Source of the DNA: a virus
DNA: 18,502 bases
Direction: 5' to 3' (one strand)
Virus genome (UHGV): UHGV-1351447
Made by a program: the position numbers and the translations under genes. Below are positions 1-18,037 of the stretch, in pieces. The notes beneath the pieces were generated by a model. That model searched no databases and was not told where the DNA came from. It was given only the letters and a program-made list of their open reading frames with translations. Within the stretch, counting starts at the first letter, position 1; the number at the start of each line of letters is the position of its first letter.

Positions 1-55
1 AATTAATGAACATCGTTCATCAATGCGCGGTCAGTTTGACAATGAGGAAGGCGGC
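1..55. repeat. Left inverted terminal repeat (55 bp). It begins with the palindrome ATGAAC-ATC-GTTCAT (two 6-bp arms around a 3-bp spacer).
   Basis: Bases 1-55 are the exact reverse complement of 18448-18502. The match breaks at position 56 against 18447. Terminal repeats of this kind are the hallmark of linear, protein-primed genomes. Confidence 0.85.
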
Positions 56-64
56 TGTTATATT
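36..64 (+). promoter_or_regulatory. Sigma-70-type promoter TTGACA-17-TATATT, predicted start site near 71, reading rightward into the first early ORF.
   Basis: TTGACA lies at 36-41, followed by a 17-nt spacer and TATATT at 59-64. The -35 box is inside the terminal repeat, the -10 box just outside it. Confidence 0.55.
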
Positions 65-99
65 GTAAGTGTCAGTTAAACAAGTCAAAGGAGTCTACC

Positions 100-258
100 A
101 TGTTCTACGTAATCAAATATTACTGGCATAACAGTAAAAACGAAGTATACGAACTTAAACATATGCACTGCGAAACGATCAAAGCAGCATGCGAGTATCT
201 TCAATTCATGGAAAAACATCCCTCTTACGTTTTCGTCTCCATGAAGAAAGTAGGCTGA
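100..258 (+). CDS. Small early hypothetical protein, 52 aa (MFYVIKYYWHNSKNEVYELKHMHCETIKAACEYLQFMEKHPSYVFVSMKKVG). Not in the ORF track, which omits ORFs under 60 aa.
   Basis: A strong ribosome-binding site AAAGGAG lies at 87-93, 6 nt before the ATG at 100. The gene is AT-rich and is the first gene after the left-end promoter. Its TGA at 256-258 sits 2 nt before the next ATG. Confidence 0.45.
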   Translation: MFYVIKYYWHNSKNEVYELKHMHCETIKAACEYLQFMEKHPSYVFVSMKKVG

Positions 259-260
259 TT

Positions 261-491
261 ATGATACATCAGGTAGAATGCTGGGACTATAAAGAAGATT
301 TCACAGCAGAAAAGCCACCAACCACTCTAGAGTATATCACAGACTTCGACATGACAGATGAATATGTCTATGACACTTATGCAACATTCGATATAATCGT
401 AGTACGTGCCACTGTCATGAAAGAACATGGTCGAGTGGCGATACAATCACGTTATTATGTTATCGACAACACATGGATGGATTGGCGATGA
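261..491 (+). CDS. Acidic early hypothetical protein, 76 aa from the ATG at 261. The track ORF 189..491 is the same frame with an N-terminal extension. Net charge is about -8, so an anti-defence or DNA-mimic role is possible but speculative.
   Basis: Same frame as track ORF 189..491. The ATG at 261 is 2 nt after the stop of the 100..258 ORF, which suggests translational coupling. I counted 15 Asp/Glu against about 7 basic residues. Position at the genome end is early. Confidence 0.45.
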   Translation: MIHQVECWDYKEDFTAEKPPTTLEYITDFDMTDEYVYDTYATFDIIVVRATVMKEHGRVAIQSRYYVIDNTWMDWR

Positions 492-562
492 ACCCTGAAA
501 CCTTGTTTGCCATAATAGCATACGCAATTGCTATGGTTTACGTGATCAAAAGGTATAAATAA
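488..562 (+). CDS. Tiny hydrophobic peptide, 24 aa (MNPETLFAIIAYAIAMVYVIKRYK). Very tentative.
   Basis: Its ATG overlaps the TGA of the upstream ORF (ATGA). The peptide is a single hydrophobic stretch. There is no clear ribosome-binding site. Confidence 0.2.
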   Translation: MNPETLFAIIAYAIAMVYVIKRYK

Positions 563-587
563 AAAATTTGATTTGTGAAGATTCTGT

Positions 588-618
588 GAAAAGACCGGAT
601 TCCGGTCTTTTCGCTTTT
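588..618 (+). terminator. Rho-independent terminator or attenuator: hairpin AAAAGACCGGA / TCCGGTCTTTT followed by CGCTTTTC.
   Basis: Perfect inverted repeat 588-598 / 600-610 with a GC-rich core, then a T-run. It sits between the small early ORFs and the p6-like gene. Confidence 0.5.
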
Positions 619-626
619 CACGGGCG

Positions 627-632
627 TATAAT
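627..632 (+). promoter_or_regulatory. Candidate -10 box TATAAT for the p6-like and p5-like operon. The -35 box is weak.
   Basis: Consensus TATAAT at 627-632, about 45 nt upstream of the ATG at 676. No good -35 at 17 nt spacing (GGTCTT). It partly overlaps the terminator's T-tract. Confidence 0.3.
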
Positions 633-675
633 GGATATCGTCAAAGCAAGCCGACCGATCAAAGGAGATTACATT

Positions 676-939
676 ATGGCTGCTATCACCCGCACTTTCA
701 AGAGTTTCGAGCTGACCGCCTACGAGCTTGACGATTCCACGCCCCCGAGCGTGGCGGTCGTCGCCCAGTACGTCGTGCTGGACACCAACATGAACGTGCG
801 CAAAGCGCGTACCGCCTTCCGCGATGCCGGCGTGGCGCTGCCCAAGGGCTGCACAATCAAGTGGGTCGAAGGCGAGGAGAAGACCTATTCCATGCCCGTG
901 GAAACGTTCCTTGAAAACGCTACCGTCATCGACGCTTAA
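676..939 (+). CDS. Histone-like double-stranded DNA-binding protein, phi29 p6-like, 87 aa. The true start is the ATG at 676, not 568.
   Basis: Ribosome-binding site AAAGGAG at 661-667 with the ATG at 676. The 568 start of the track ORF would read through the terminator hairpin. The C-terminal motif KTYSMPVETFLENATVID resembles phi29 p6 as I recall it (HVYKMPVADFLKHAVRVE). The gene sits first in the 6-5-4-3-2 order. Confidence 0.45.
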   Translation: MAAITRTFKSFELTAYELDDSTPPSVAVVAQYVVLDTNMNVRKARTAFRDAGVALPKGCTIKWVEGEEKTYSMPVETFLENATVIDA

Positions 940-964
940 ACTAATAGACTAGAAGGAGAAAACC

Positions 965-1426
965 ATGCCTGAGAACAAAGACATCGCCATCGCCGAGGAA
1001 ATGCCCGTCAACGACCTCGCACCTGCCCGCACGTACGCCATCGCCGAGCTTGCCAAGCCCGAGGACAACACGTTCTGCTCGGTGAACCCGGAGCTTGGAG
1101 CGGATGCCAAGAAGCTGATCTACAACGCGTCCAACAATCCGACGCACAAGATCGACGACTTCATCAACAAGCAGATCGCGCTGAAAGACCTGTTCGTGGA
1201 GATCATCGAAATCGCAGACGAGGACGGCACCGTGGAGCAAGCCCCGCGCATCGTCCTCATCGACGACAAGGGCGAGAGCTACCAGTGCGTGTCGAACGGG
1301 GTGTGGGGCTCGCTCAAGAAGATGTTCGCCGTCTACGGAGCGCCAACCTACGAGGAGCCTATCAACGTGGTCGTCAAGCAGGTGAAGGTTAAGCGCGGTA
1401 CGATGCTCACCCTCGAAGTCGCTTAA
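965..1426 (+). CDS. Single-stranded DNA-binding protein, phi29 p5-like, 153 aa.
   Basis: Ribosome-binding site AAGGAG. It lies second in the early operon. The C-terminal pattern (DDKGESYQCVSNGV ... VKQVKVKRGTMLTLEV) resembles my recollection of phi29 p5 (ADGSLYSAISKTV ... KVKVVQGTSSKGNVFFSLQL). Confidence 0.45.
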   Translation: MPENKDIAIAEEMPVNDLAPARTYAIAELAKPEDNTFCSVNPELGADAKKLIYNASNNPTHKIDDFINKQIALKDLFVEIIEIADEDGTVEQAPRIVLIDDKGESYQCVSNGVWGSLKKMFAVYGAPTYEEPINVVVKQVKVKRGTMLTLEVA

Positions 1427-1439
1427 AGTTCGTAATCAC

Positions 1440-1467
1440 AGGCCGCACCCAGCGTGCGGCCTTTTTC
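1440..1467 (+). terminator. Rho-independent terminator: AGGCCGCAC-CCAGC-GTGCGGCCT followed by TTTTC.
   Basis: A 9-bp GC-rich stem with a 5-nt loop and a run of Ts, directly after the p5-like stop codon. Confidence 0.7.
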
Positions 1468-1478
1468 AGGAGGAAGCC

Positions 1479-1787
1479 GTGTTGTCGCTTGCAGACAAGG
1501 ATTTGATGGAGCAGTTCGTAGCGGACTCGTCGAACAGGGTGCTGAAGAAAGAGCTATGGGCGCATGCCGTCGTCCCGCAAGGCGTGGCCGTTTTCAAGCG
1601 CCATCATAACGGGCGCATCGAATATATGTTCACCAAGGACGACAAGTTCGATATGAAGCGGGACGACATAAACGACCTGCGCGAGCTTGTGCGCCGCTAC
1701 GTCATAGACGATTATATCGGACTCGTCTTCGTCATGCATTCGCAAGCGCTGAAAACGGTTTCCAAGCATATCAAATATCGTTATTGA
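1479..1787 (+). CDS. Early hypothetical protein, 102 aa, GTG start.
   Basis: Ribosome-binding site AGGAGGAAG at 1468-1476 precedes the GTG at 1479. Typical coding composition. No family recognised. Confidence 0.5.
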   Translation: MLSLADKDLMEQFVADSSNRVLKKELWAHAVVPQGVAVFKRHHNGRIEYMFTKDDKFDMKRDDINDLRELVRRYVIDDYIGLVFVMHSQALKTVSKHIKYRY

Positions 1788-1800
1788 AAGGAGGTGCGCC

Positions 1801-2205
1801 ATGCCTTCGAAAAACGGCGTTTTCTACGAGTTGAAGGAATCGCCTTACTCTTTCATGTACGGAGACTGTACGTTCTTCTTCTCGTCTAGGAAGCATCTTT
1901 CCAGTTTCATGGACAAGATCTGCGTCAGAACGCAATGGCTGGACGACAGCATGGAAAAGCGTTTCCACTTCTACGTCAATATGCAGCTGGTCGCCGCGTT
2001 CCAACTGTACTTCACGGTGGAGACCAGGGGGTGCTACGTCAGATTGGAAAACGGTGAGGAGCTGACATGCAGAGAGAACCTAAGATTAAATGGACTGAAA
2101 GCCAGCGTTCGCGCCTCAACTCCGCAGTCCGAAAGTACAACAACGCCATTCGACGGGCTATGCGGGCGAATCCCGCCAACGCCCAGTTCATGCCCGAGCC
2201 GGTAA
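1801..2205 (+). CDS. Transcriptional regulator, phi29 p4-like (late-gene activator and early repressor). Its 3-prime end overlaps the terminal-protein start in another frame.
   Basis: Ribosome-binding site AAAGGAGG. The N-terminus MPSKNGVFYELKESPYSFMYGDCTFFFSS aligns with phi29 p4 MPKTQRGIYHNLKESEYVASNTDVTFFFSS. The ETRGCYVRLENGEELT segment matches EKRGFHAWLKGDNATW. It lies directly upstream of the terminal protein, as in phi29. Confidence 0.75.
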   Translation: MPSKNGVFYELKESPYSFMYGDCTFFFSSRKHLSSFMDKICVRTQWLDDSMEKRFHFYVNMQLVAAFQLYFTVETRGCYVRLENGEELTCRENLRLNGLKASVRASTPQSESTTTPFDGLCGRIPPTPSSCPSR

Positions 2206-3250
2206 GCTACAAGGAAGTCAAAGCCGAGATCAAGAGCGCGCGCGTGCTTAACAACACGGTCGCGCGCTTGCTGCGCGCTACGCGCAAAGGAGCCTTGGAC
2301 TTGACGAACGTCGGAGAGGGAGGCATTGCCACGCGCTACGAAGTGCGGGAGTTCCAGATCGCGAAATCCGTCAACGAGCGGCGCAAGTCGCTGCGGCGCA
2401 AGAAGCTGGGGATCGACTACGGCCAGACCCTGGGACGCATGGGAACGTTGCAGCAGAACAACCTCCTTCCCGACAAGCGCACCGCGCGAGACTTCTCTCC
2501 CATCGCCCTCAAGCGCTTCATCAAGCGTTACGAGGAGCTGAGCGCCGCCTTACTCTTTCATGTACGGAGACTGTACGTTCTTCTTCTCGTCTAGGAAGCA
2601 TCTTTCCAGTTTCATGGACAAGATCTGCGTCAGAACGCAATGGCTGGACGACAGCATGGAAAAGCGTTTCCACTTCTACGTCAATATGCAGCTGGTCGCC
2701 GCGTTCCAACTGTACTTCACGGTGGAGACCAGGGGGTGCTACGTCAGATTGGAAAACGGTGAGGAGCTGACATGCAGAGAGAACCTAAGATTAAATGGAC
2801 TGAAAGCCAGCGTTCGCGCCTCAACTCCGCAGTCCGAAAGTACAACAACGCCATTCGACGGGCTATGCGGGCGAATCCCGCCAACGCCCAGTTCATGCCC
2901 GAGCCGGTAAGCTACAAGGAAGTCAAAGCCGAGATCAAGAGCGCGCGCGTGCTTAACAACACGGTCGCGCGCTTGCTGCGCGCTACGCGCAAAGGAGCCT
3001 TGGACTTGACGAACGTCGGAGAGGGAGGCATTGCCACGCGCTACGAAGTGCGGGAGTTCCAGATCGCGAAATCCGTCAACGAGCGGCGCAAGTCGCTGCG
3101 GCGCAAGAAGCTGGGGATCGACTACGGCCAGACCCTGGGACGCATGGGAACGTTGCAGCAGAACAACCTCCTTCCCGACAAGCGCACCGCGCGAGACTTC
3201 TCTCCCATCGCCCTCAAGCGCTTCATCAAGCGTTACGAGGAGCTGAGCGC
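1841..3250. repeat. Perfect tandem duplication with a 705-bp period: copy 1 is 1841-2545, copy 2 is 2546-3250.
   Basis: Position x matches position x+705 at every base I checked. Track ORFs 2067..2594 and 2772..3512 are identical for their first ~160 aa; 2560..2910 equals 1801..2205 minus its first 18 aa; 2326..2541 equals 3031..3246. The boundaries are defined by t1840 against c2545 and g2547 against a3252. Confidence 0.85.
2067..2594 (+). CDS. Truncated terminal-protein paralogue made by the 705-bp duplication: terminal-protein residues 1-160 fused to a novel 15-aa tail (ALLFHVRRLYVLLLV).
   Basis: Same ribosome-binding site (GAGGAG) and the same first 160 aa as the full terminal protein at 2772. 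The reading frame crosses the duplication junction at 2545/2546 and stops at 2594. Confidence 0.5.
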   Translation: MQREPKIKWTESQRSRLNSAVRKYNNAIRRAMRANPANAQFMPEPVSYKEVKAEIKSARVLNNTVARLLRATRKGALDLTNVGEGGIATRYEVREFQIAKSVNERRKSLRRKKLGIDYGQTLGRMGTLQQNNLLPDKRTARDFSPIALKRFIKRYEELSAALLFHVRRLYVLLLV

Positions 3251-3512
3251 CACGAGTTCCTACGAAAGGCTGAACAGGTACTACAAGAACTATATCAAAG
3301 GCCTCGACACGGTGTTCGGCGGCTACTCCGAGTTCGATGCGGCTATATCGCAGATCGCGAGGAAGATCGAATCCATGATGAAGTCCAACGCGGGCAAGCT
3401 CATGGAGTTCTTCGAGTCCGGAGACGAGCTTCTGAACATCGAGTACATCTACGCGCCGGAAGACCGCGCCGACAAGATGGGCTACATCCTCGACAGATGG
3501 GCTGAGCTATGA
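2772..3512 (+). CDS. Terminal protein, the replication primer (phi29 gp3-like), 246 aa.
   Basis: Ribosome-binding site GAGGAG 7 nt before the ATG. A basic N-terminal domain. It sits immediately upstream of the protein-primed DNA polymerase with a 1-nt gap (TGA-t-ATG), as gene 3 sits next to gene 2 in phi29. Size fits (phi29 terminal protein is 266 aa). Confidence 0.7.
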   Translation: MQREPKIKWTESQRSRLNSAVRKYNNAIRRAMRANPANAQFMPEPVSYKEVKAEIKSARVLNNTVARLLRATRKGALDLTNVGEGGIATRYEVREFQIAKSVNERRKSLRRKKLGIDYGQTLGRMGTLQQNNLLPDKRTARDFSPIALKRFIKRYEELSATSSYERLNRYYKNYIKGLDTVFGGYSEFDAAISQIARKIESMMKSNAGKLMEFFESGDELLNIEYIYAPEDRADKMGYILDRWAEL

Positions 3513-3513
3513 T

Positions 3514-5202
3514 ATGCAGTACTTCACGGCCGATTTCGAAACGACGGCAGACGACCTGACCCAAACGCGAGTTTGGGCGTGGGCTGCTTGCACCTTGAAA
3601 ACCTACGATATAACGACCGGAACTTCCATCGAAGGGTTCATGGAATGGTGCGAGCGCGCCCCTGACGCTCGCGTTTACTTCCACAACCTGAAATTCGACG
3701 GGAAGTTCATCATATCGCATCTGCTTGACGCGGGATGGGAATGGATTCCCAGCCACGGAGAGCAAGCGCCCTACCGGTTCACGACGCTGATCAGCGACAT
3801 GAACCAGTTCTACGCCATCAAGCTCTATTTCGGCAGAGGGCATTACATCGAATTCTGCGATTCGTTGAAGATCATCAGCTTGCCGGTCGCGAAGATTCCG
3901 CGCGCGTTCGGCTTCGAGGAAGAGGATGCGAAGCTCGAGATAGACTATGCGGAGCATCGCGACATCGATCATGTTCTGACGCAAGAGGAGATCGATTACA
4001 TTTCGGCCGACGTGAGGATCGTCGCGCGAGCCTTGGGCGAGCTGATCGACCAGGGAGCGACCAAGATCACGGCCGGGTCGAACGCCATCGCCGAGTACAA
4101 GAAGACGATAGGCGGAGAGAAGGGATTCAGACGGACGTTTCCAGTGTGCGACTACGACGCGGAGATCCGGCCATGCTACAAGGGCGGCTTCACGTACGTG
4201 AACCCCGATTTCAAAGGGCGCGACATCGGGGAGGGAATCGTCCTGGACGTTAACAGCCTGTACCCTTCCGTCATGGTCGGAGTCGGAGGCGAGATCCTGC
4301 CGTACGGTGATCCGATGCTCTTCGAAGGAGAGTACGTCCCGGATCCTCGATATCCGCTCTACATACAGACCGTGACCGTCGACTTCAAGCTCAAACCCGG
4401 CTTCATCCCTTGCTTGCAGCTCAAAGGCAACTTGAGTTTCATGCCGACCGAATACGTGATCGATTCCAAAGGCGAGCAGACGCTGGTATTGACAAGCGTC
4501 GACTTGGCGCTTCTGCGCGACCACTACGACATCTATTCCATCCGCTACGGAAAAGGCTGGAAGTTCAAGGCATCGAACAAGCTCTTCTACGATTTCATCA
4601 TGGCGGCCAACGAGGAGAAGGTGCATGCGGCCGAGGAGGGCAACGCCGGCAAGCGCTACATGGCGAAGCTCAAGATGAACTCCTCTTACGGCAAGATGGC
4701 GACGCATCCGGTCAAACGGAGCCGCCGGCCGGCCATGTGCGAGGACGGCATAGTGCGCTACCCTCTGCTCGACCCGGAAGCCACCGACGGCATGTACCTG
4801 CCGGCCGGGGCTTTCATCACGGCCTGGGCGAGGAACAAGACGATACGGAGCGCGCAGAAGGTGAAGGATCGCTTCCTCTACGCCGACACCGATTCGCTCC
4901 ATTTGGCAGGAACCGAGATCCCGGAAGAGCTTGACGTGGACGATTACCGTCTGGGAGCGTGGAAGCTCGAAAGCACGTTTCAGCGCGCAAGGTTCCTGCG
5001 TCCGAAGACCTACATCGAGGACGAGGGCGGCAAGCTCACCGTGCATTGCGCGGGGCTTCCCGAATCGTGCCACCCTCACGTCACATGGGATAATTTCCAT
5101 GTCGGCGCGAAATTTCCGGGAAAACTCTATTCCAAGACCGTAAAAGGCGGTATTATACTATACGAAGGTGATTTTGTCATCAGAAAGGAGACAGGCTTAT
5201 GA
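3514..5202 (+). CDS. Family-B DNA polymerase of the protein-primed type (phi29 gp2-like), 562 aa.
   Basis: Exonuclease motif Exo I DFETT at the N-terminus (MQYFTADFETT against phi29 MKHMPRKMYSCDFETT). Polymerase motif YADTDS (the YxDTDS signature). The Kx3NSxYG motif appears as KLKMNSSYGK. Size and position match phi29 DNA polymerase (575 aa). Confidence 0.92.
   Translation: MQYFTADFETTADDLTQTRVWAWAACTLKTYDITTGTSIEGFMEWCERAPDARVYFHNLKFDGKFIISHLLDAGWEWIPSHGEQAPYRFTTLISDMNQFYAIKLYFGRGHYIEFCDSLKIISLPVAKIPRAFGFEEEDAKLEIDYAEHRDIDHVLTQEEIDYISADVRIVARALGELIDQGATKITAGSNAIAEYKKTIGGEKGFRRTFPVCDYDAEIRPCYKGGFTYVNPDFKGRDIGEGIVLDVNSLYPSVMVGVGGEILPYGDPMLFEGEYVPDPRYPLYIQTVTVDFKLKPGFIPCLQLKGNLSFMPTEYVIDSKGEQTLVLTSVDLALLRDHYDIYSIRYGKGWKFKASNKLFYDFIMAANEEKVHAAEEGNAGKRYMAKLKMNSSYGKMATHPVKRSRRPAMCEDGIVRYPLLDPEATDGMYLPAGAFITAWARNKTIRSAQKVKDRFLYADTDSLHLAGTEIPEELDVDDYRLGAWKLESTFQRARFLRPKTYIEDEGGKLTVHCAGLPESCHPHVTWDNFHVGAKFPGKLYSKTVKGGIILYEGDFVIRKETGL
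5133..5163 (+). promoter_or_regulatory. Candidate late promoter inside the 3-prime end of the polymerase gene: TTCCAA-16-TATTAT, or TATACT. The -35 is weak, so it may depend on an activator.
   Basis: A local AT-rich island sits just upstream of the scaffold start at 5199. There is no intergenic space between the polymerase and scaffold genes. phi29 late promoter A3 likewise lacks a good -35 and needs p4. Confidence 0.25.
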
Positions 5203-5555
5203 GCAGGTACCAACCGAGCTTGCGCGAGCTGGCCATGGAGCCGGACGAGGACAAGCGGCTCGAGATGGCCGCGCGAATCGACGAGGACGCGGCCGAGCTG
5301 GACGACCGATGGGACGAGCGCGAAGGCTGGCGAAACGAGCGCGAGGAGTGGGACGCGGAGCGCGACCGCCTGAACGCCGAGCGCGACGAGGCCATCGCCG
5401 AACGCGACCGCTACCGCGAGGAGCGCGACGAGTCGCGCCGCAAGTACGCCGACCGGTTCTTCGCCGTCGAAGGCCAGACGCTGCTTCATGTGAACGAGGC
5501 CGGCGAGGAAGTTCGGCGCGAGCCGATCCGCAGCGCCGACGAGATCTGGGATTAA
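5199..5555 (+). CDS. Head scaffolding protein (phi29 gp7-like), 118 aa.
   Basis: Ribosome-binding site AAAGGAG. The ATG overlaps the polymerase stop codon. The protein is highly charged and looks like a coiled coil rich in E, R and D (RWDEREGWRNEREEWDAERDRLNAERDEAIAERDRYREERDE). It lies just upstream of the capsid gene. Confidence 0.65.
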   Translation: MSRYQPSLRELAMEPDEDKRLEMAARIDEDAAELDDRWDEREGWRNEREEWDAERDRLNAERDEAIAERDRYREERDESRRKYADRFFAVEGQTLLHVNEAGEEVRREPIRSADEIWD

Positions 5556-5564
5556 GGAGATATT

Positions 5565-7046
5565 ATGGCAGTGAAGCAACCTAATATGAAAGCCGCCGAC
5601 TCGCCGATCGTCATGAAGGCGGGAGATACGGCAGCGCGCGAGACGGCTGCGCAGAAGGCGGTCGAAGCGACCATCAACGAGACTCCGGAGGTAGCGTCCG
5701 CGCTCGCAGCTCGCGGCATCCCGGCAACCTACGACTCGAACAATCGCGCTTACGTGGAGCTTGCCGGCACGACCGACGAGATCCATGCCATCGGGGAGTA
5801 TCTGACTAGCTACCAGCCCGCGCGAAACGCTTTCCTCAACGCGCTGGTGAACCGCATCGGCCTCACCATCGTGACATCGAAGCTGTACCGCAACCCCTGG
5901 GCGGTGTTCAAGCGCGGGTACCTAGAGTTCGGAGACACGATCGAGGAAATCTTCGTCAACCTCGCCGACGTTCACGGCTTCTACCCCGAGGGCGCGGAAG
6001 ACACGTTCGCCAAGCGCGAGCTTCCCGACGTGCGCACCGCGTTCCACCGCATGAACTTCCAGAAGTTCTACAAGACGACCGTCTCCTCCCAGCAGCTGCG
6101 CCAGGCGTTCCTGTCCTGGACGGGCGTTAGCGACCTGATCGCGCGCATCATCGAGTCTCTCTACACCAGCGCCGACACGGACGAGTACTACGTCATGCGC
6201 TACTTCCTGGCCAAGTGCCTCCTCAACGGCTACATCGGCTCGGTGGAGATTCCCGCGATCAGCAAGGACAACGCGATCGACATCGCCACGCAGTTCCAGT
6301 ACATGTCCGACCTGTTCCAGTACCAGTCCACGAAGTACAACATGGCCGGCGTGACCACCCACACCGATTTCGAAGACCAGTACTTCATCGTCACGGCCAA
6401 GTTCAAGGCCACGATGAACATGAACGTGCTGGCCACCGCATTCAACTTGGAGTACCGCGAGTTCCAGGCGCGCATGATCACGGTCGACACGTTCACCGAC
6501 TTCGACTGGGTTCGCATGGACGCGCTGTTCACCGACCCGGCCACCGGCCAGCTCGACCCCAACTACCACCGCTTCACGGAAGATGAGATCGCGCTGCTCG
6601 AGACCGTGCCGGCGGTGCTGGTGTCGCGCGATTGGTGGATGGTGCTGGACAACTACGTGGAGTCCGCGCAGTGGTTCAACGGCGAAGGGCTGTACTGGAA
6701 CCATTGGCACCATGTGTGGAAGACCATCAGCTGCTCGCCGTTCGGGCAGGCGGCCGCCTTCACCCCGACCGCCCCGACCATCACGAGCGTGACGGTCACG
6801 CCGGCGACCGCCACCCTTTCCAAGGGCGCGGATCTGCAGCTGAGCGCGGCCGTGGTCGGAACCGGCATCGTGAACCAGGGCGTGCAGTGGACGGTGACCG
6901 GAGGCGCTGCATCCGGTACGACCGTCACCAACGGCGGGTACCTGCACGTGGCGGCCAACGAGACGGCGACGACGCTCACCGTCACGGCAACCTCCATCCA
7001 GGACGGAACGAAGACGGGCGAATCCACCATCACCGTCACCGCATAG
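5565..7046 (+). CDS. Major capsid protein (phi29 gp8-like) with a C-terminal Ig-like domain (Big_2), 493 aa.
   Basis: Ribosome-binding site AAGGAG. Several segments align to phi29 gp8: RIGLTIV against RIGLVVI, and DWWMVLDNYVESAQWFNGEGLYWNHWHHVWKTIS against [34 protein letters not shown]. The last ~95 aa are T, V, A, G-rich beta strands typical of Big_2. Confidence 0.9.
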   Translation: MAVKQPNMKAADSPIVMKAGDTAARETAAQKAVEATINETPEVASALAARGIPATYDSNNRAYVELAGTTDEIHAIGEYLTSYQPARNAFLNALVNRIGLTIVTSKLYRNPWAVFKRGYLEFGDTIEEIFVNLADVHGFYPEGAEDTFAKRELPDVRTAFHRMNFQKFYKTTVSSQQLRQAFLSWTGVSDLIARIIESLYTSADTDEYYVMRYFLAKCLLNGYIGSVEIPAISKDNAIDIATQFQYMSDLFQYQSTKYNMAGVTTHTDFEDQYFIVTAKFKATMNMNVLATAFNLEYREFQARMITVDTFTDFDWVRMDALFTDPATGQLDPNYHRFTEDEIALLETVPAVLVSRDWWMVLDNYVESAQWFNGEGLYWNHWHHVWKTISCSPFGQAAAFTPTAPTITSVTVTPATATLSKGADLQLSAAVVGTGIVNQGVQWTVTGGAASGTTVTNGGYLHVAANETATTLTVTATSIQDGTKTGESTITVTA

Positions 7047-7059
7047 CCTATGTTCCATC

Positions 7060-7090
7060 GAGGGCGGGATTCGTTTCCCGCCCTCCTTTC
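7060..7090 (+). terminator. Hairpin GAGGGCGGGA-TTCGTT-TCCCGCCCTC followed by CTTTCC. A possible partial terminator or attenuator after the capsid gene.
   Basis: A perfect 10-bp GC-rich stem 14 nt after the capsid stop. The U-tract is weak. Capsid genes are commonly followed by leaky terminators. Confidence 0.4.
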
Positions 7091-7105
7091 CGAAGGAGGT
7101 GAGAA

Positions 7106-8731
7106 ATGTACCAGCCCAGCACGGAGATCCGCATAGGCACGGTTCCATGGAACCCGAACTACAAGCACGTTCGATGGTATCCGAACCTGAACGCCCAGAT
7201 TTCGGGCGTAGCTTCGTTCATGGACGCTCAGCGGACGATATCCACGTACACGTACCAGCGCCTTGAATCGGCTATAGACGTGGACGGCAACCCCGAGCAA
7301 TACTACAATTACAACTACGTCATGTTCCAGAACGAGAACTTCGGGACTAAGTGGTTCTACGCGTTCATCACGCGCGCAGAATACAAGACGGCTAACACCA
7401 CGCGCTTGCACTTGGAACTGGATTACGTGCAGACCTACATGTTCGACTACGACTTGAAGCCGTGCTTCGTGGAGCGCGAGCATGTGAACGACGACTCGAT
7501 AGGCGCTCACGTCAAGGACGAGGGAATAGATCCCGGCGAGCTTAAATGCACGTACTCCGTGATCGACAACGACGACATGGATTGCTACATGGTCGTTGCC
7601 AGCGCCGTGGAGCCGCTGAAGGACGGAACGTACGTCAACAACGGCGGGGACAAGTACATGGGCGTTACCAGCGGGACGAGCTTGTCGGTGTTTTTGACCG
7701 TGGACGACTTCAAGGGCTTCATGAAGGCGTTGTCCGACAACGGCCAGCAGGACGCGGTGAGCCAGGTCTACATGGTGCCGCGCGCCGCCATCCCGACTAT
7801 CGTCAAGAAGTCCGACGGGTGGGGATACTGGGTGGACTCGAACGCGGACACGCCCCAGGTAACGAAGGACTACGCGCTCGGCTTCACCAGCCTCGACGGC
7901 TACGTCCCCAAGAACAACAAGATGTTCTGCTATCCGTTCCAGTACGCTGAAGTGACCAACTTCACCGGAGCCGACCAGCAGTTCCGGCTCGAATTCTGCG
8001 GAACGCCCGGAACGCTGAGCTTGCAGAAGACCGGCGGGTGCGATGCGAACTCGCGTCTGGCCTACATCCCGCTGAACTACAACGGGGTGAACCGCTTCGT
8101 CGAAGGAGCCGTCTACTTGGAGAAGTACCCCACTTGCAACTGGGTGTACCAGGCGTTCGCCAACATGCTCGGCGCGTCCCAGGCGGACACGTCGTTCGGA
8201 TTGTCGTTCAACTCGATGAGCCAGCTGCCCTACGTGAACTCCTTCATCGACTCCACGCAGAACATCATCGGAGGGGCTCTGCAAGGCCTGTCTTCGGGAA
8301 ACGTCGCCGGGGCTGCCGCGAGCATGATCAACTCCACGATCAACGGAGCGCAAGACCTTACGAACACCTTCGCGAACTTCTCGAAAGCATCGAAGACCCC
8401 GAACACGCAGCGCGGAGGCACTAACTCGACTACCGCGCTCGTGAACTTCGGAACCTACACGATAGGCGTTCGCAAGTACACGTGCCGAGCCGAGATAGCC
8501 CGCCAGATCGACGACTTTTTGAGTGTGTACGGCTACAACGTGTCGGTCGTGAAAACACCTAACGTCACGGGGCGCGCTTCATGGAACTACGTGAAGACCG
8601 TCGCCGCGAACATGAGCGGATCGGTTCCGGCCGGATACCTGGCGATGTTCAACAGGCTGCTCGACTCCGGAGTCACGTTCTGGCACACGGACGACGTGGG
8701 CAACTACAGTTTGGGCAATGCTATAATATAA
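7106..8731 (+). CDS. Tail knob or distal tail tube protein (phi29 gp9-like), 541 aa.
   Basis: Ribosome-binding site GAAGGAGGTGAG. The segment YNYVMFQNENFGTKWFYAFITRAEYKTANTTRLHLELDYVQTYMF aligns with phi29 tail protein [43 protein letters not shown]. It lies between the capsid and portal genes, as gp9 does. Confidence 0.75.
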   Translation: MYQPSTEIRIGTVPWNPNYKHVRWYPNLNAQISGVASFMDAQRTISTYTYQRLESAIDVDGNPEQYYNYNYVMFQNENFGTKWFYAFITRAEYKTANTTRLHLELDYVQTYMFDYDLKPCFVEREHVNDDSIGAHVKDEGIDPGELKCTYSVIDNDDMDCYMVVASAVEPLKDGTYVNNGGDKYMGVTSGTSLSVFLTVDDFKGFMKALSDNGQQDAVSQVYMVPRAAIPTIVKKSDGWGYWVDSNADTPQVTKDYALGFTSLDGYVPKNNKMFCYPFQYAEVTNFTGADQQFRLEFCGTPGTLSLQKTGGCDANSRLAYIPLNYNGVNRFVEGAVYLEKYPTCNWVYQAFANMLGASQADTSFGLSFNSMSQLPYVNSFIDSTQNIIGGALQGLSSGNVAGAAASMINSTINGAQDLTNTFANFSKASKTPNTQRGGTNSTTALVNFGTYTIGVRKYTCRAEIARQIDDFLSVYGYNVSVVKTPNVTGRASWNYVKTVAANMSGSVPAGYLAMFNRLLDSGVTFWHTDDVGNYSLGNAII

Positions 8732-8745
8732 GAAAGGAGGTATGC

Positions 8746-9738
8746 ATGAACCCTATCCAATCCACTACCACCCCTTACGGCCTTCCCTGGGGCAACATGC
8801 CCAAGAACGCGCACAAATCCGCTCGAGAGCTGGACAACGTCGCCATGAACTCGCAAACGATGTTCCTCTGGCAGATGCGCCTGTACGAGCTGGCGATGAG
8901 CGTTTTCGAGTGGGAGAACCTGCCGGAGGGCATCAACGAGCGCCAGATCGAGTGGTGGCTGCTTCGCGACGGATTCTGCGTGTTCCTGCACGACGAGGAT
9001 ATCGCGCTCGACCCGATCCAGCGCAGCCCGGAAGGCTACGCCATCATGCAGTGCATGTTGGAGGGAAACTTCGACATCTACTCGCAGCCGGTGAACCGCA
9101 TAGCCTACTCGGTGATGGGGGTCAACATCCCGCTCACCATCGAGAACTCCGTCATAATCTGGAATTCGAACTTGCGCGTGCCTACCTGGTTCGCGCTCAA
9201 CATGTACGCCAAGAAGCTGTGGGCGATAGACCGGGCGATCGATGTGAACGTGTACCAGCAGAAGACCCCGCGCGTGGTGAAATGCTCGCAGAAGCAGCGC
9301 CTGAGCTTCGAGAACATGATGGCGCAGGTGGACGAGTACAAACCCCTCATCATGACGGACAAGGACTTCGACCTCGAATCCATCGACATCCTCGACAACT
9401 CGTCGCCGTACGTGGCAGAGCAGCTCTACGAGCTGAAGGACAAGTACTGGAAGGAAGCGCTGGGATTCCTCGGAATCGCCAGCTCCGAGTCCAAGTCGGA
9501 GCGCGTCATCGTGGACGAGATGCTGGCCAGCCTCGGCGGCACGGAGGCGCAGCGGCTGTGCCGCCTCGAATCCCGGCAGTTCGCGTGCAAGCAGATAAAC
9601 GAGATCTTCGGTCTTGACGTTGACGTTCATTTCCGCGTGTCGGAGAAACGCCAAGAAGAGCAGTGGGCTGTCGCCGACGGCGAATTCAATGAAAGCGAGT
9701 ACGCCGAGGAGAACGGGATCGAGGTGAACGGAGAATGA
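8746..9738 (+). CDS. Portal, the upper collar connector (phi29 gp10-like), 331 aa. The true start is the ATG at 8746, not 8581.
   Basis: Ribosome-binding site AAAGGAGG at 8733-8740. VFEWENLPEGIN matches phi29 gp10 LFEWENLPPTIN. NVYQQKTPRVVK matches NQNAQKTPVLIR. KQINEIFGLDVDVHFR matches KINELYGLNVKVKFR. The acidic C-terminus also matches. Confidence 0.88.
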   Translation: MNPIQSTTTPYGLPWGNMPKNAHKSARELDNVAMNSQTMFLWQMRLYELAMSVFEWENLPEGINERQIEWWLLRDGFCVFLHDEDIALDPIQRSPEGYAIMQCMLEGNFDIYSQPVNRIAYSVMGVNIPLTIENSVIIWNSNLRVPTWFALNMYAKKLWAIDRAIDVNVYQQKTPRVVKCSQKQRLSFENMMAQVDEYKPLIMTDKDFDLESIDILDNSSPYVAEQLYELKDKYWKEALGFLGIASSESKSERVIVDEMLASLGGTEAQRLCRLESRQFACKQINEIFGLDVDVHFRVSEKRQEEQWAVADGEFNESEYAEENGIEVNGE

Positions 9739-10409
9739 GCAAGTACAGCTTGCAGCTTCGCTGGCTGGTCGAACAGACGCTTGCAAACGGCGGCTGGGAC
9801 TTGCACGAGGACAACTGGAACAACGCCTACGACAAGCTGGGCTTGGCCGACTACCCGATCTTCGACGAAGCGTACCGCGAGACGCTGAACAACAAGATAA
9901 TACGCCATTACTGGATGTACGAGATCGGTTCCGAAACCGCCGGCCTTTTCCGCTGGAACCTGCGCGACGCTATGTTCATGGTCATGCCGTACTACAATCA
10001 GATGTATCTGTCGGAGATCACGGCGAAGGGGATCCAGCCGCTCATCGACCACACGCGGACGATCACGGAAGACGCGACCGGCACCGCCTCCAACAACGCG
10101 AACACGAGCGCGACATCTACCAGCAACGCGCAGGACATTTTCAGCGACACTCCGATGTCGGCGCTCAACTTCGACAACATCAAGGCGGGCAACTACGCGT
10201 CCACGGCGGACTTCACCGATGCTTCCACGACGGATTCCGGAAAGTCGGATTCGAGCGGCATGTACGACAACAAGCTGTCGCGCACGGAAACCGGGCACGA
10301 CAAAGCGGAATCCGAACTGCTCTTGATTTGGCGAGACACGTTCGTTAATATAGACCGTGACATAGTGGAAGACAAAGCGCTGCGCGAATGCTTCATGACG
10401 ATATGGTAA
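9735..10409 (+). CDS. Lower collar protein (gp11-like), 224 aa. The call rests on position only.
   Basis: Its ATG overlaps the portal stop (ATGA), and GGAGA serves as a ribosome-binding site. It is directly downstream of the connector, as in phi29. A Ser, Thr, Asn-rich loop (TGTASNNANTSATSTSNAQ) is consistent with a tube-forming loop. No sequence I could match from memory. Confidence 0.45.
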   Translation: MSKYSLQLRWLVEQTLANGGWDLHEDNWNNAYDKLGLADYPIFDEAYRETLNNKIIRHYWMYEIGSETAGLFRWNLRDAMFMVMPYYNQMYLSEITAKGIQPLIDHTRTITEDATGTASNNANTSATSTSNAQDIFSDTPMSALNFDNIKAGNYASTADFTDASTTDSGKSDSSGMYDNKLSRTETGHDKAESELLLIWRDTFVNIDRDIVEDKALRECFMTIW

Positions 10410-10419
10410 GGAGGAGCGC

Positions 10420-10878
10420 ATGAACCAGCCGACACCGGATGTAGCGCCGTTTCGCTACTACGTGCAAATGGTTCTGCCGGCCGTCTACGGCGACGAGCTG
10501 AGCTATTACGAGGTGCTTGCCAAGGTGACCGAGAAGCTGAACGAGGTCATCGAGAATTTGAACAAGCAGGGTCAGAACGTGAACGACCTGATGGCGTTCT
10601 ACAACCAGCTGAAAGCGCAGGTGGACGCGCTTGAAAACGAGGTCGATGCTATCAAGAACGGCGAGTACGTGCATCTGTACCTCGATTCCATCATAAACTG
10701 GATCGATGCGAACCTGCAGTGCCTGGTGGCCAGGATCGTCAAGTTCGTGTGCTTCGGGCTTGGCGACGACGGCCATTTCAAGGCGTACATCCCCGCTACC
10801 TGGCAGTTCTTGCAGTTCGACACGGGAATGAACCCGGACGACTCGACCACGTACGGGCATCTCATCATCAAATGGTAA
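10420..10878 (+). CDS. Structural hypothetical protein, 152 aa, with a coiled coil. Possibly an appendage adaptor or neck component.
   Basis: Ribosome-binding site AAGGAGG. It sits in the late structural block between collar and tailspike. The heptad-like segment is KLNEVIENLNKQGQNVNDLMAFYNQLKAQVDALENEVDAIKN. Confidence 0.5.
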   Translation: MNQPTPDVAPFRYYVQMVLPAVYGDELSYYEVLAKVTEKLNEVIENLNKQGQNVNDLMAFYNQLKAQVDALENEVDAIKNGEYVHLYLDSIINWIDANLQCLVARIVKFVCFGLGDDGHFKAYIPATWQFLQFDTGMNPDDSTTYGHLIIKW

Positions 10879-10889
10879 AGGAGAGAATC

Positions 10890-12518
10890 ATGGCAGAATC
10901 CACGAAGAACATGACGGTGGGCGCGGGAAGCGCGAGCGCGAGCGTCACCGCCACCGTCACCGACCAGATGCCGGGCGTTCCCTGCCCGACGACTCCGGGT
11001 TTCACCTATACCGGAATGCGCTACGTTCCGGTGTTCGCAGACCCGCCGGAATGGTCTAGCGCGAACAGCTACGAGCCGTTGGAGATCGTCATCCACGAGG
11101 GGAATTCCTACACGTCCAAGACTTTCGTCCCCGTCGGCATCGACATCGCGAATTCACAGTACTGGGTGCTTACGGGCAACTACGATGCGCAAGTAGAACA
11201 GTATCGACAGGAAGTAGCAAAGCTTTCTAGAGACGTGGGAGAGCTGGAGAAGTCGGTTTCTTATCTGGATAATTTCAATGTGCCAGAGCAATTCGGAGCC
11301 GTTGGAAATGGAATCGCAGACGACACGGTGGCCATTAGAAGCTGGCTGCAAAGCGGCGAATCGCTGGCTTTGAAGCCCGGTAAAACCTATTTGACTGATT
11401 CTATCACCGTGTCGTCTGCGGTTAAAGTGATCTTGGGATTCAATGCCACTCTGAAATTCAATCCTAATCAAGCTAATGCCTGTGTCGTGATAGATTCCGC
11501 TAGGTGCGATATCCAGGGAATCACGATAGATTGCAACGGAAACGGAATAGGAGTCACTTCGCAAGCAACGCGCTGCACCATATCGAAATCACAAATATTG
11601 AATTTCACGCGGATAGGCCTGCAAACCCTAACCGGGACGACTTCTGGGTATGAGGCAGTGTTCGATACTCTTTATATCGTGGCTGCGGACAAAGCAGATT
11701 ACGGCGTGTATGTTAAACGTGCCGATTGCATCTTCAATAATGTAGTGACTCAAGATTGCATGACTGCTTTTAGATTTGATCAGGGTTCCGCGCTTATAAG
11801 CAATTTGCATTCATGGAATCGTGCGGTACATGCTACCGAAGAATCGGTGATGTTCTCGATTTTCACGCCCGATGTTATCCTGGCGAATAACGTGTATTGC
11901 GATACGATCAAATATCTGATTAACGTTCCGACAACTGTAACCCCCACCGCGACTATAACAGTTAAAAACGCTCTCATGCTGGCACCGAAAGGGTTCGTTC
12001 AGTTCATCTGCAAAACCTATTCGGGGGCGACCAACACATACGGCGTGCACGTTCAATACAATAATTTTCCGGGCAGGAACCCGAAAACCTTTAACGTGAG
12101 CGCGTTTCAAGGTATCGCGGAAAGCATGATCAGGGTGGCAGATGGATCAGAAGTTCTTGCCCCGACTTATACTTCAATGAGGAACACGATAGGATGGGGC
12201 TTCAAACCAGGACTCGTGAATACGCCGAATACCGGAATGAGCGTGTACCGCCAACTGTTGAACATAGGCTATATCGGATACTTCGATCTTACCTCTACGA
12301 CTGAAATCACGCCTTCAGACGGATATGTTGCAATCGGAAACATGCCTCCGGTTTCTTCTACTGAAACAGGTCTTCGAACTGTTGGATTCTGCAAAGTGGG
12401 GGATGAAATGAGGGTTATAGCGTTTGATTATTCAGATAAAACGGTTAAAGTCGAAGCAAGCGCCAATATTCCGGCGAAAACGCGGATAGCCGGCAACGTG
12501 TTCTTTTCCATGTACTAG
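10890..12518 (+). CDS. Tailspike, or pre-neck appendage (gp12-like): a conserved N-terminal anchor, then a coiled coil, then a pectate-lyase-superfamily right-handed beta-helix depolymerase. 543 aa.
   Basis: Ribosome-binding site AAAGGAGAG with the ATG at 10890. The track ORF 10719 is an N-terminal extension of this frame. FGAVGNGIADDTVAIRSWLQSG matches the pectate-lyase-3 (GH28-like) beta-helix N-cap motif (YGAKGDGVTDDTAAIQAAI). Repetitive beta-strand segments follow. Confidence 0.75.
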   Translation: MAESTKNMTVGAGSASASVTATVTDQMPGVPCPTTPGFTYTGMRYVPVFADPPEWSSANSYEPLEIVIHEGNSYTSKTFVPVGIDIANSQYWVLTGNYDAQVEQYRQEVAKLSRDVGELEKSVSYLDNFNVPEQFGAVGNGIADDTVAIRSWLQSGESLALKPGKTYLTDSITVSSAVKVILGFNATLKFNPNQANACVVIDSARCDIQGITIDCNGNGIGVTSQATRCTISKSQILNFTRIGLQTLTGTTSGYEAVFDTLYIVAADKADYGVYVKRADCIFNNVVTQDCMTAFRFDQGSALISNLHSWNRAVHATEESVMFSIFTPDVILANNVYCDTIKYLINVPTTVTPTATITVKNALMLAPKGFVQFICKTYSGATNTYGVHVQYNNFPGRNPKTFNVSAFQGIAESMIRVADGSEVLAPTYTSMRNTIGWGFKPGLVNTPNTGMSVYRQLLNIGYIGYFDLTSTTEITPSDGYVAIGNMPPVSSTETGLRTVGFCKVGDEMRVIAFDYSDKTVKVEASANIPAKTRIAGNVFFSMY

Positions 12519-12529
12519 GAAGCAATAAG

Positions 12530-12895
12530 ATGGCTGCCGAACCGACAGGCGGGGGAAACCCCAACTTCTTCAAGACCTTCAAGGGGGCGTATGTCCACGC
12601 CCCCTCCCCTGAAGCGATGTTCACCAGCGAGCGGGTCATGCTGTCCTGCGTGAACGACGTGCAGTTCCAAGGCGACTGCATGATCATGAACTACACGCCG
12701 GGCGCGACGCTCACGACGCTGCCTCCGGAATGCCGGCCGTCGACCGAGGTTCGCGTTCCCGTGGTCGTGGATACGCGCCTTGACGTGCTGGCGGTGCAGA
12801 CGAACGGGGTCGTTTCCCTGAACGCCTCCACCGACGGCATGGTGTATCTGGCGGGACTGTCCTTCAATATAAGCATGAACTGGTATTCTAATTAG
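12530..12895 (+). CDS. Hypothetical protein, 121 aa, downstream of the tailspike. Possibly a tailspike-associated factor or a beta-sandwich protein.
   Basis: An AGGAAG-like ribosome-binding site 5 nt before the ATG. High-GC coding composition. No motif recognised. Confidence 0.45.
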   Translation: MAAEPTGGGNPNFFKTFKGAYVHAPSPEAMFTSERVMLSCVNDVQFQGDCMIMNYTPGATLTTLPPECRPSTEVRVPVVVDTRLDVLAVQTNGVVSLNASTDGMVYLAGLSFNISMNWYSN

Positions 12896-12907
12896 GCGGA
12901 ATCAAAG

Positions 12908-13086
12908 ATGGATGTTAACGATATTGTCACTCTTATTGGTAGTCTGGGCTTCCCTATTGTGGCTTGCGTGGGCATGTTTTACCTGTACAATCGTACTCTT
13001 AAGGACTTTACTAGCACACTTAGCGACATTGCGAGCGAGATTAGGGAGCTACGGGAAGAACTTAAAGAGCTGATCAAGAATGCTTA
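12908..13086 (+). CDS. Putative holin, 59 aa: one transmembrane helix and a charged, coiled C-terminus. Not in the ORF track.
   Basis: Sequence MDVNDIVTLIGSLGFPIVACVGMFYLYNRTLKDFTSTLSDIASEIRELREELKELIKNA. The hydrophobic core is IVTLIGSLGFPIVACVGMFYLY. It is AT-rich. It overlaps the GH25 lysozyme gene by 7 nt. Confidence 0.55.
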
Positions 13087-13754
13087 GGGGAATCGACATA
13101 TCCAACTGGCAAGCAGGGTTGGATGCGGATGCGGTGTTTCCCAACGTGGACTTCGTGATCTGCAAGGCTACCGAGGGCGTGGGTTTCGTGGACGGGTACT
13201 GCGACAGCTGGGTGCAGTGGTGCCGCGCTCACGGAAAGCCGTGGGGGTTCTACCACTTCGCGAATGGCAATGCGCCCGCTAAGGAAGCCGCGTACTTCAT
13301 CAACAACACCAGCAACTATTTCGGCGAGGGCGTGCCGGTGCTTGACTGGGAGGGCGACCAATCGGTTGACTGGGTGAACGAGTTCGTGAAGATCGTCCAC
13401 GATCAGACGGGAATCTGGCCTTGGATCTACGCCAACCCATGGCGCTTCAACCAGGGCGGCGTGGAGCAGAACTGCATGCGCTGGATCGCGAGCTATCCGG
13501 ACGTGCTTCGCCCAGGCCTCGACTTCGACCCTGGCGAGCCTCCGGAGACGGACGGGCTTGTGGGATGCTGGCAGTACGCGTCCGACGGACAGGTGCCCGG
13601 ATATGCCGGGAACCTGGATGTGAATCACTTCTTCGGGAGCGTCGGCGCATGGTCGGCGTACACGGGTGTTCCGTCTTCGGGACAACCTTCTGAACCGACT
13701 GGTCAGTCGGTTTTGGAGAACGATAGATTCCGCGTGACAATTGACGAGAAGTGA
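13080..13754 (+). CDS. Endolysin, a GH25 muramidase (lysozyme), 224 aa.
   Basis: The N-terminus GIDISNWQ is the GH25 (Cpl-1 or Cellosyl-type) signature, followed by the family's DFVICKATEG and WGFYHF blocks. It sits immediately after the holin. Confidence 0.85.
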   Translation: MLRGIDISNWQAGLDADAVFPNVDFVICKATEGVGFVDGYCDSWVQWCRAHGKPWGFYHFANGNAPAKEAAYFINNTSNYFGEGVPVLDWEGDQSVDWVNEFVKIVHDQTGIWPWIYANPWRFNQGGVEQNCMRWIASYPDVLRPGLDFDPGEPPETDGLVGCWQYASDGQVPGYAGNLDVNHFFGSVGAWSAYTGVPSSGQPSEPTGQSVLENDRFRVTIDEK

Positions 13755-13762
13755 TGTATGAT
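13734..13762 (+). promoter_or_regulatory. Candidate promoter gTGACA-17-TATGAT overlapping the lysozyme stop codon, predicted start site near 13769.
   Basis: GTGACA at 13734-13739, a 17-nt spacer, then TATGAT at 13757-13762. Each box matches consensus at 5 of 6 positions. Confidence 0.35.
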
Positions 13763-13765
13763 GGT

Positions 13766-13936
13766 TATGCGCCGGAAAGCAAGCTATCTTCTGCGTCTGT
13801 GGGGCACCCGGTGAAACGGGCACGGGCGCATACGGAGAACAGCCCCCTCTGTGATAGTCTTTTCGGTTAGCGCCCTTTGACTTAGCCCCTGTCGCTTGGA
13901 CATCCATGATGGCAGGGGCTTCTTCGATAAAGGGCG
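13766..13936 (+). ncRNA. Candidate structured RNA in the intergenic region upstream of the packaging-ATPase operon. It could be a pRNA-like molecule or a structured leader.
   Basis: A 208-bp gap in an otherwise tightly packed genome. Domain 1: an 8-bp stem TATGCGCC (13766-13773) pairs with GGCGCATA (13825-13832) and encloses the hairpin CCCG-GTGAAA-CGGG (13807-13820). Domain 2: an 8-bp stem CGCCCTTT (13871-13878) pairs with AAAGGGCG (13929-13936) and encloses a nested 8-bp stem AGCCCCTG (13884-13891) pairing with CAGGGGCT (13913-13920), which contains small inner hairpins. Confidence 0.3.
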
Positions 13937-13962
13937 GGCATTCCAAGTCAAAGGAGGAACCC

Positions 13963-14154
13963 ATGAAATTAAGAGAGATTTGCAATCTAATAGGCGATGA
14001 TGAAGTTATAATCTGCTGTGATGGGTTCGATATCAGGATCATTGCAAATGATGTCAATGATAATCAGTTTACGTCTCCATTTTCAACTGAAGACGTGGTG
14101 AATCTAAAGGCTGTATACAATGACAGCGTTTGCGCTATAGTGGTGTATATTTGA
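13963..14154 (+). CDS. Small hypothetical protein, 64 aa, AT-rich, translationally coupled to the packaging ATPase.
   Basis: Ribosome-binding site AAGGAGG at 13951-13957 with the ATG at 13963. Its TGA overlaps the ATPase ATG (TGATG at 14152-14156). Sequence MKLREICNLIGDDEVIICCDGFDIRIIANDVNDNQFTSPFSTEDVVNLKAVYNDSVCAIVVYI. The track ORF 13906..14154 is an N-terminal extension. Confidence 0.5.
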   Translation: MKLREICNLIGDDEVIICCDGFDIRIIANDVNDNQFTSPFSTEDVVNLKAVYNDSVCAIVVYI

Positions 14155-15164: not shown

Positions 15165-15385
15165 TGAATATGGAAAAATGTACCCAAAAACTGAATGACA
15201 TGGGGTATGAAGGATTGGCAGAAGCGCTGTACTATCTTTATGAAAAATCAAGCGAATTGGATAAGCGAACGATTCTTGGAATCACCAAACTTGCTGTGAA
15301 GAATATCGACAAGTACGAAGAAGAACATAGAATCCTTTATGGATTTTTGGATGCGCATATAACAGGAGTGATCACCCGTGGCTGA
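15164..15385 (+). CDS. Hypothetical protein, 73 aa, AT-rich island, copy 1.
   Basis: Its ATG overlaps the ATPase stop (TAATG). Lys and Glu-rich helical sequence MNMEKCTQKLNDMGYEGLAEALYYLYEKSSELDKRTILGITKLAVKNIDKYEEEHRILYGFLDAHITGVITRG. GC is far below that of its neighbours. Confidence 0.5.
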   Translation: MNMEKCTQKLNDMGYEGLAEALYYLYEKSSELDKRTILGITKLAVKNIDKYEEEHRILYGFLDAHITGVITRG

Positions 15386-15977: not shown

Positions 15978-16029
15978 ATCTAAAGGCTGTATACAATGAC
16001 AGCGTTTGCGCTATAGTGGTGTATATTTG

Positions 16030-17955: not shown

Positions 17956-17956
17956 G

Positions 17957-18037
17957 ATGCTGTCGCATTATATTGCACTTGTAGTGGGCACTATGTTAGG
18001 TATCGCTATTATGTGTCTGGTGAGCAGTAATAAATGA
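17957..18037 (+). CDS. Tiny hydrophobic peptide, 26 aa (MLSHYIALVVGTMLGIAIMCLVSSNK). Tentative.
   Basis: Ribosome-binding site GGGAGGG at 17945-17951, and the ATG is 1 nt after the hydrolase stop. A single membrane-spanning stretch. Its TGA stop lies inside the internal copy of the terminal 20-mer. Confidence 0.25.
   Translation: MLSHYIALVVGTMLGIAIMCLVSSNK

Follow-up and report, generated by a model that had tools for sequence, protein, structure and literature searches.

The stretch of DNA analysed here (the window) is the 18,502-nucleotide UHGV virus genome UHGV-1351447, which reads from its sequence as a phi29-like Eggerthella phage, a podovirus with all of its genes on the + strand. It contains a perfect tandem duplication of 705 bp, covering most of a p4-like regulator gene and the first 160 codons of a putative terminal-protein gene, as well as a second, unrelated duplication of 1876 bp. 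The 705-bp duplication most likely belongs to this one contig, and not to the phage genome that is dominant in nature. With a probability of about four in five, it arose at the level of assembly, by traversal of a graph loop seeded by minority junction reads. Misassembly is favoured because other contigs of this strain carry the segment once, because the junctions are absent everywhere they were searched for, and because the ends of the window are those of a graph contig with k = 55. A sequence-only reading had proposed that the phage carries the duplication, that it expresses a modulatory terminal-protein fragment and that its replication is duplication-prone; these same lines of evidence speak against that proposal and favour the systematic assembly problem which the reading had named as its fallback.

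Self-comparison of the sequence places the two copies of the 705-bp unit head to tail on the + strand, at 1841-2545 and 2546-3250, with no mismatches between them, as had been stated from the letters alone. The copies are directly adjacent, as they would be in a genuine tandem duplication, and a chance origin of a perfect repeat of this length is impossible. Each contains p4-like codons 15-134 and terminal-protein codons 1-160. In Eggerthella phage LE1-1 the unit matches one single segment, 1587-2291. The bases at the junction are ...GAGCTGAGCGC/CGCCTTACTC..., with the break at 2545/2546, and the run over which s[i] = s[i+705] measures 706 nt, so that the microhomology is exactly 1 nt (C). The earlier estimate of 1 nt is therefore retained, while its upper value of 5 nt is not, since the 4-nt CGCC which occurs at both boundaries of this duplication lies in a different register from the junction and does not serve as an overlap.

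The claim that the window holds two independent perfect tandem duplications within 18.5 kb was also borne out, and the second could be located. Positions 14010-15885 and 15886-17761 (both on the + strand) are identical over 1876 bp, with 0 mismatches and 0 nt of microhomology at the junction 15885/15886; the unit comprises the 3' part of a small open reading frame (ORF), the packaging ATPase, a 73-amino-acid ORF and codons 1-169 of the tail lysin. One systematic process is suggested for the pair, because two unrelated duplications are both perfect and show overlaps of only 1 and 0 nt. A coincidence of k-mers as the cause of either join is ruled out, as the boundaries share just those 1 nt and 0 nt. 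Removal of both duplications reduces the window to 15,921 bp.

Neither junction was encountered in independent data. A census covered 99 related loci, taken from Logan, ENA, IMG/VR and GenBank. It recovered the outer boundaries of the first duplication in 43 loci (1840/1841) and 45 loci (3250/3251), and in none the 50-mer across its junction 2545/2546. For the second duplication the corresponding counts were 8 (14009/14010), 38 (17761/17762) and, for the junction 15885/15886, again 0 of 99. No related locus contained a comparable self-repeat. Exact searches with a 31-mer failed to find the junction 2545/2546 in IMG/VR, JGI metagenomes or GTDB genomes, and the junction 15885/15886 was likewise not found by exact search of IMG/VR and JGI metagenomes. 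The independent reproduction of a junction that would mark a genuine duplication was, in these collections, not obtained.

The same strain can be followed in other samples. Logan contigs that encode the exact polymerase protein measure 15,871 bp in SRR12791892 and SRR9161501 and are shorter in SRR22410973, SRR9161558 and SRR22410976. All are 99.95-100% identical to the window and contain the 705-bp unit once; they are 100% identical across both 1840/1841 and 3250/3251, and read straight through (contigs L013-L017). A further group, reached via the exact tail-lysin protein (L058-L062), is single copy through 14009/14010 and 17761/17762, and one of its members, L060, was seen in 5 samples and matches the window with 100% identity along 13.1 kb. 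Altogether, the strain is single copy in at least 7 other runs, with 0-7 differences over about 15.8 kb, and the collapsed window equals the 15,871-bp public contig base for base, with 25 nt more on either side. Relatives that are complete, both terminal repeats included, measure 15,966-16,719 bp. One Logan contig, L002 (SRR9161559), begins 14 nt inside the unit and was considered as a possible junction branch. Such a branch would be expected at 1841, and the start is instead explained by a population C/T polymorphism at 1854, which produces a k-mer break at 1855; L002 also reads unbroken across 3250/3251, contrary to the idea.

The ends of the window bear the mark of the assembler. Its first 55 nt (1-55) form a perfect inverted repeat with its last 55 (18448-18502), and these represent the innermost parts of the left and right inverted terminal repeats, both being contig ends and not the physical ends of the genome. 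In related contigs that have both ends, the terminal repeats are 176-228 bp long, their inner edge falls at window position 55/56, and many relatives extend 100-173 nt further outward at both ends. Same-strain Logan contigs, built at k = 31, span window positions 26 to 18477, which includes exactly 30 nt of the repeat. The 55 nt and the 30 nt correspond to overlaps of k and k-1 with the vertex at which the collapsed repeat branches; both ends of the window overlap that repeated vertex by exactly k, as a path through such a graph does. SPAdes and metaSPAdes finish by default at k = 55.

Several additional features of the termini were observed. About 125-175 nt of the repeat are missing from either end of the window, and this outer part carries a strong TTGACA-17-TATAAT promoter directed outward, to the genome end. 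A 25-nt near-palindrome, AATTAATGAACATCGTTCAT(C/T)(A/T)AT, has 3 sites against 0 expected, at 1-25, 18029-18053 (- strand) and 18478-18502 (- strand). It adjoins promoter-like sequences, such as TTGACA-17-TATATT at 36-64, whose -10 is extended; relatives conserve the motif, which resembles an operator for a phage regulator. Past the right end of the window, L061 (SRR9161559; 4147-4195) and L058 (11250-11354) have 26 nt in common and then diverge; L061 departs there from the terminal-repeat sequence seen elsewhere, and may contain a chimeric join at the genome end.

These observations can be accommodated in a single scheme. The window would be a short-read de Bruijn-graph contig, produced most likely by SPAdes or metaSPAdes with a final k of 55, in which the 705-bp segment formed a single graph edge. 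A minority of reads joining 2545 back to 1841, derived from chimeras of the library or its amplification or from rare rearranged molecules, would have introduced a back-edge, and a path finder that walked the resulting loop once would have written the same edge twice. The segment 14010-15885 would have passed through the same loop process, and the truncated terminal-protein ORF and the p4 fragment would be by-products of the walk. SPAdes is generally understood to handle loops in this way. The 0 mismatches in both 705 bp and 1876 bp are as a graph loop predicts, because in a de Bruijn graph identical copies result when one edge is written twice; in a contig from a k = 55 graph the perfect identity of the copies is consequently uninformative. 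The window resembles a de Bruijn loop misassembly in ending 55 nt into a longer repeat, in its identical copies and in the single-copy state of other assemblies. It differs in that the back-edge is here a deduced one.

Certain points weigh against an assembly loop as the explanation. The boundaries overlap by only 1 nt and 0 nt and so lack a common k-mer, which means that some reads or molecules must have carried the junctions; junction-bearing DNA existed, and may have consisted of genuine in-vivo variants. The evidence consists of assembled contigs, and not of read depth or junction frequency. The single-copy assemblies come from other samples, which do not strictly exclude a variant specific to the source sample, and Logan contigs, from which weak connections are dropped, show only that the junction is not dominant. 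Finally, the chimeras formed by multiple displacement amplification resemble the present case in that they place non-reference junctions at appreciable copy number in deeply covered small genomes, yet such chimeras are reportedly mostly inverted and accompanied by some microhomology, whereas the junctions in the window are direct and blunt.

A possible setting for an assembly loop is offered by a published gut-virome pipeline that combined multiple displacement amplification, metaSPAdes 3.10 and a dereplication step keeping the longest contig (bioRxiv 10.1101/657528). Such a workflow would generate inflated contigs and would preferentially keep them; its tie to the window is a lead only.

The duplication alters the coding content around the terminal-protein gene in the manner that had been described beforehand. 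An ORF created by the junction (2067-2594, + strand) encodes 175 amino acids, namely terminal-protein residues 1-160 followed by 15 novel residues from the p4 region in another reading frame (ALLFHVRRLYVLLLV), and stops at 2594; the complete gene follows at 2772. The ATG at 2067 is preceded, 5 nt upstream, by GAGGAG. The predicted product has a computed mass of 20.3 kDa, in place of the 19 kDa or so first given for it, and a pI of 11.2. The 3' part of the p4-like gene is repeated at 2560-2910 (+ strand). Of the earlier description of this fragment, the repetition of 116 codons and the missing ribosome-binding site held, and the supposed lack of a start codon did not, as a 116-amino-acid ORF begins at an internal in-frame ATG at 2560 (Met19 of p4), with no Shine-Dalgarno sequence. 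Each gene stays intact in one copy despite the duplications, as it would after any tandem duplication.

None of these novel products has left a trace in public gene calls. Exact-product look-ups among 153 billion gene positions, which took in four start variants of the duplication-created ORFs as called genes, returned no record of the 175-amino-acid product or its 144-amino-acid start variant, nor of the 116-amino-acid p4-fragment product or the 199-amino-acid ORF of the junction 15885/15886. Among 92 listed clusters of terminal-protein homologues, in which truncation was judged by lengths and coverage and the short or odd members were read, none was cut at residue 160 with this tail.

The properties of the fragment depend on the identity of the gene from which it derives. 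The complete gene (2772-3512, + strand; 246 amino acids) ends 1 nt before the gene for a protein-primed family-B DNA polymerase (3514-5202, + strand; 562 amino acids; PF03175, E 2.8e-52), and its context is that of a phi29-type terminal protein, with the polymerase downstream, a linear genome and inverted terminal repeats. Curated families offer no help, since the ORF has no sequence match in Pfam (including Phi-29_GP3), PHROG or PDB. Its AlphaFold model has a mean predicted local distance difference test score (pLDDT) of 87.8, and the top PDB fold match of the model, the sole one with a notable probability (0.96), is 2ex3_B, the phi29 terminal protein; the match itself is weak (E 0.18; template-modelling scores, TM, of 0.36/0.43 over 173 columns). 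Because the gene adjoins the polymerase, its first 20 residues are conserved and 2ex3_B is the top fold match, the ORF is probably a terminal protein, and the assignment made without database searches was broadly right.

The comparison with phi29 gp3 (2EX3 chain B) reveals both common and divergent traits. As in phi29, the gene lies directly upstream of that for the protein-primed polymerase, the N-terminal two-thirds of the protein are very basic (net +21), and the model consists of a beta-hairpin and a long helix, followed by a C-terminal helical bundle whose last helix is preceded by a loop. Unlike phi29 gp3, with which no sequence similarity is detectable and the fold match is weak, the protein has a likely priming loop with an invariant Tyr227 and not a Ser. 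Tyr227, invariant in 35 homologues, lies in the loop 217-229 before the last C-terminal helix (region 3427-3465, residues 219-231), and because this loop occupies the position of the phi29 priming loop, the model suggests Tyr227, rather than a serine, as the candidate priming residue.

The start of the gene also merits attention. Public gene calls give a protein of 215 amino acids, beginning at the ATG equivalent to 2160/2865. Homologues of 240-246 amino acids, at 40-48% identity, conserve residues 7-20, and the sequence supports the 246-amino-acid start (2067/2772) over the shorter version because of this conservation and the GAGGAG ribosome-binding site. At 246 amino acids, the terminal-protein gene shares 139 nt with the end of the p4-like gene.

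In the phi29 terminal protein, an N-terminal domain that binds DNA is followed by an intermediate one that binds the polymerase and by a C-terminal priming domain of four helices with the priming loop (PMC4974454; PMC4357725), and the background on the N-terminal domain from which a regulatory role had been argued is correct in the light of the same two papers. Mapped onto the model, residue 160, where the fragment breaks off, closes helix 145-160 and precedes helices 163-245 and the loop 217-229. In such a fragment the DNA-binding part, and probably the polymerase-binding one, would be retained and the priming part lost, and we infer that the fragment would more likely act as a competitor or poison of replication than as a helper or modulator.

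Apart from these junctions, other irregular joins involving the same gene were observed. ENA/Logan contigs of 0.7-1.9 kb contain chimeric ORFs that include this terminal-protein gene (proteins P0004, P0045, P0091 and P0092); in some, terminal-protein parts are fused, with different break points, to unrelated sequence such as an AsnC-type domain or the N-terminus of a peptidase U32, and in another the terminal protein is joined to p4 through a frameshift. Short chimeric contigs of this very abundant phage are not rare.

The alternatives to an assembly loop differ in how they explain the origin of the junction-bearing DNA. An unlikely explanation, though the strongest of these, is that real minority genomes arose in the course of protein-primed strand-displacement replication, through a switch of template or through illegitimate recombination, and were merged by the assembler. 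The 705-bp and 1876-bp duplications would then possibly have resided on different molecules, and the fragment would have been made only in cells infected by the variant. The 1-nt and 0-nt overlaps, which require junction-bearing DNA at some stage, the survival of every gene in one intact copy and the membership of the polymerase in the strand-displacing phi29 family (PF03175) are all consistent with this explanation. Yet neither junction occurs in the 99 related loci or the collections searched, blunt junctions do not indicate template switching driven by annealing, a fragment that lacks the priming domain would by inference be more prone to poison replication than to modulate it, and nothing distinguishes such variants from chimeras formed in vitro. 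A more specific form, in which the phage polymerase switches templates in vivo and occasionally makes a subpopulation with kilobase duplications, the basic 20-kDa fragment of the 705-bp variant interfering with or tuning initiation, is decidedly unlikely.

That the phage lineage in the source sample recently acquired both duplications, and that they became fixed in it, is very improbable. The real genome would then measure about 18.8 kb with full terminal repeats, and both a basic 20-kDa N-terminal fragment of the terminal protein and a second copy of the packaging ATPase would be expressed. The sequence does encode these products, with a good ribosome-binding site ahead of 2067, and the perfect identity of the copies would fit a very recent event. 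Other phi29-like phages have genomes of 18-19 kb (PMC11476376), and because they package DNA of that length, an objection based on the capacity of the capsid for 16% more DNA is weak. Such a history would nevertheless demand two independent and very recent events without divergence, in a strain that is otherwise identical and single copy in the other runs mentioned above, and it would yield a genome 13-18% larger than every complete relative; the k = 55 signature leaves the perfect copies uninformative, and the junction ORFs that were tried are not on record. Introduction of the copies after assembly into a single-copy contig, whether by scaffolding or gap-closing, merging of contigs, curation or deliberate editing, is extremely improbable: it would agree with overlaps of 0-1 nt, as in random cut-and-paste, and with the base-for-base identity of the remaining window to the public contig and its 25 nt at each end, but it has no positive evidence and the k = 55 ends are those of an assembler contig untouched at least at its termini.

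The remainder of the window conforms to the known organization of the group. Its closest isolate is Eggerthella phage LE1-1 (MW679025, Guelinviridae), with 92.9% nucleotide identity over 87% of the window. The genome of LE1-1, whose host is Eggerthella lenta DSM 2243, is collinear with the window and has all genes on one strand, in the common order single-stranded DNA-binding protein (SSB), small ORF, p4-like regulator, terminal protein, polymerase, capsid, tail, connector, lysozyme, packaging ATPase and tail lysin. LE1-1 differs in its length of 15,977 bp, in having each duplicated segment once, in its other tail-enzyme module and in its lysin of 390 amino acids, compared to 233 in the window. 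A search for literature on phage LE1-1 or on the SRR91615xx accessions found none.

Pfam annotates the SSB (PF17427), a phi29-type capsid protein, a tail knob and a connector, and a gp16-type packaging ATPase and an NlpC/P60 tail lysin were identified as well. The intact gene upstream of the terminal protein (1801-2205, + strand; 134 amino acids) had been called p4-like from its translation, and this was confirmed: its product matches PF05464 Phi-29_GP4 with 49.5 bits, above the gathering cutoff of 27 (E 5.7e-13), and also PHROG 10365, the late transcriptional activator, which identifies it as a p4-like late-transcription activator.

The phage has an extremely wide distribution: a public collection indexes its exact p4-like protein in 2040 blocks and its exact packaging ATPase in 1320. 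Contigs that carry the ATPase are all shorter than 20 kb, and one block for the p4-like protein holds a contig of 20-50 kb. Diversity among strains is concentrated in the tail. The tail-enzyme or receptor-binding gene which follows a 152-amino-acid tail gene (region 10719-12518) is exchanged between strains, its variants of 440-704 amino acids comprising SGNH/GDSL hydrolase, pectate-lyase-like, End_N_terminal and unannotated forms, and the tail lysin (region 17254-17955) occurs in forms of 233 and 390 amino acids; the remaining genome is 93-97% identical.

The present analysis holds a practical lesson for the study of gut phages, in that the short-read graph contig of an abundant phage can gain 16% of spurious length and, with it, false 'novel' ORFs. 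An apparent terminal repeat of 55 bp can be merely the k of the assembler, and dereplication rules that retain the longest contig would preferentially keep such artefacts. The by-products of this work are corrected genome ends, a corrected terminal-protein start and a cautionary case for virome catalogues. Were the duplication real, it would amount to a natural experiment with a fragment of the terminal protein which can bind both DNA and polymerase and is unable to prime. If the junctions did arise by template switching in vivo, the 705-bp variant would represent a defective-interfering-like element of a phi29-like gut phage. A real duplication would also be a hint that protein-primed replication is itself duplication-prone.

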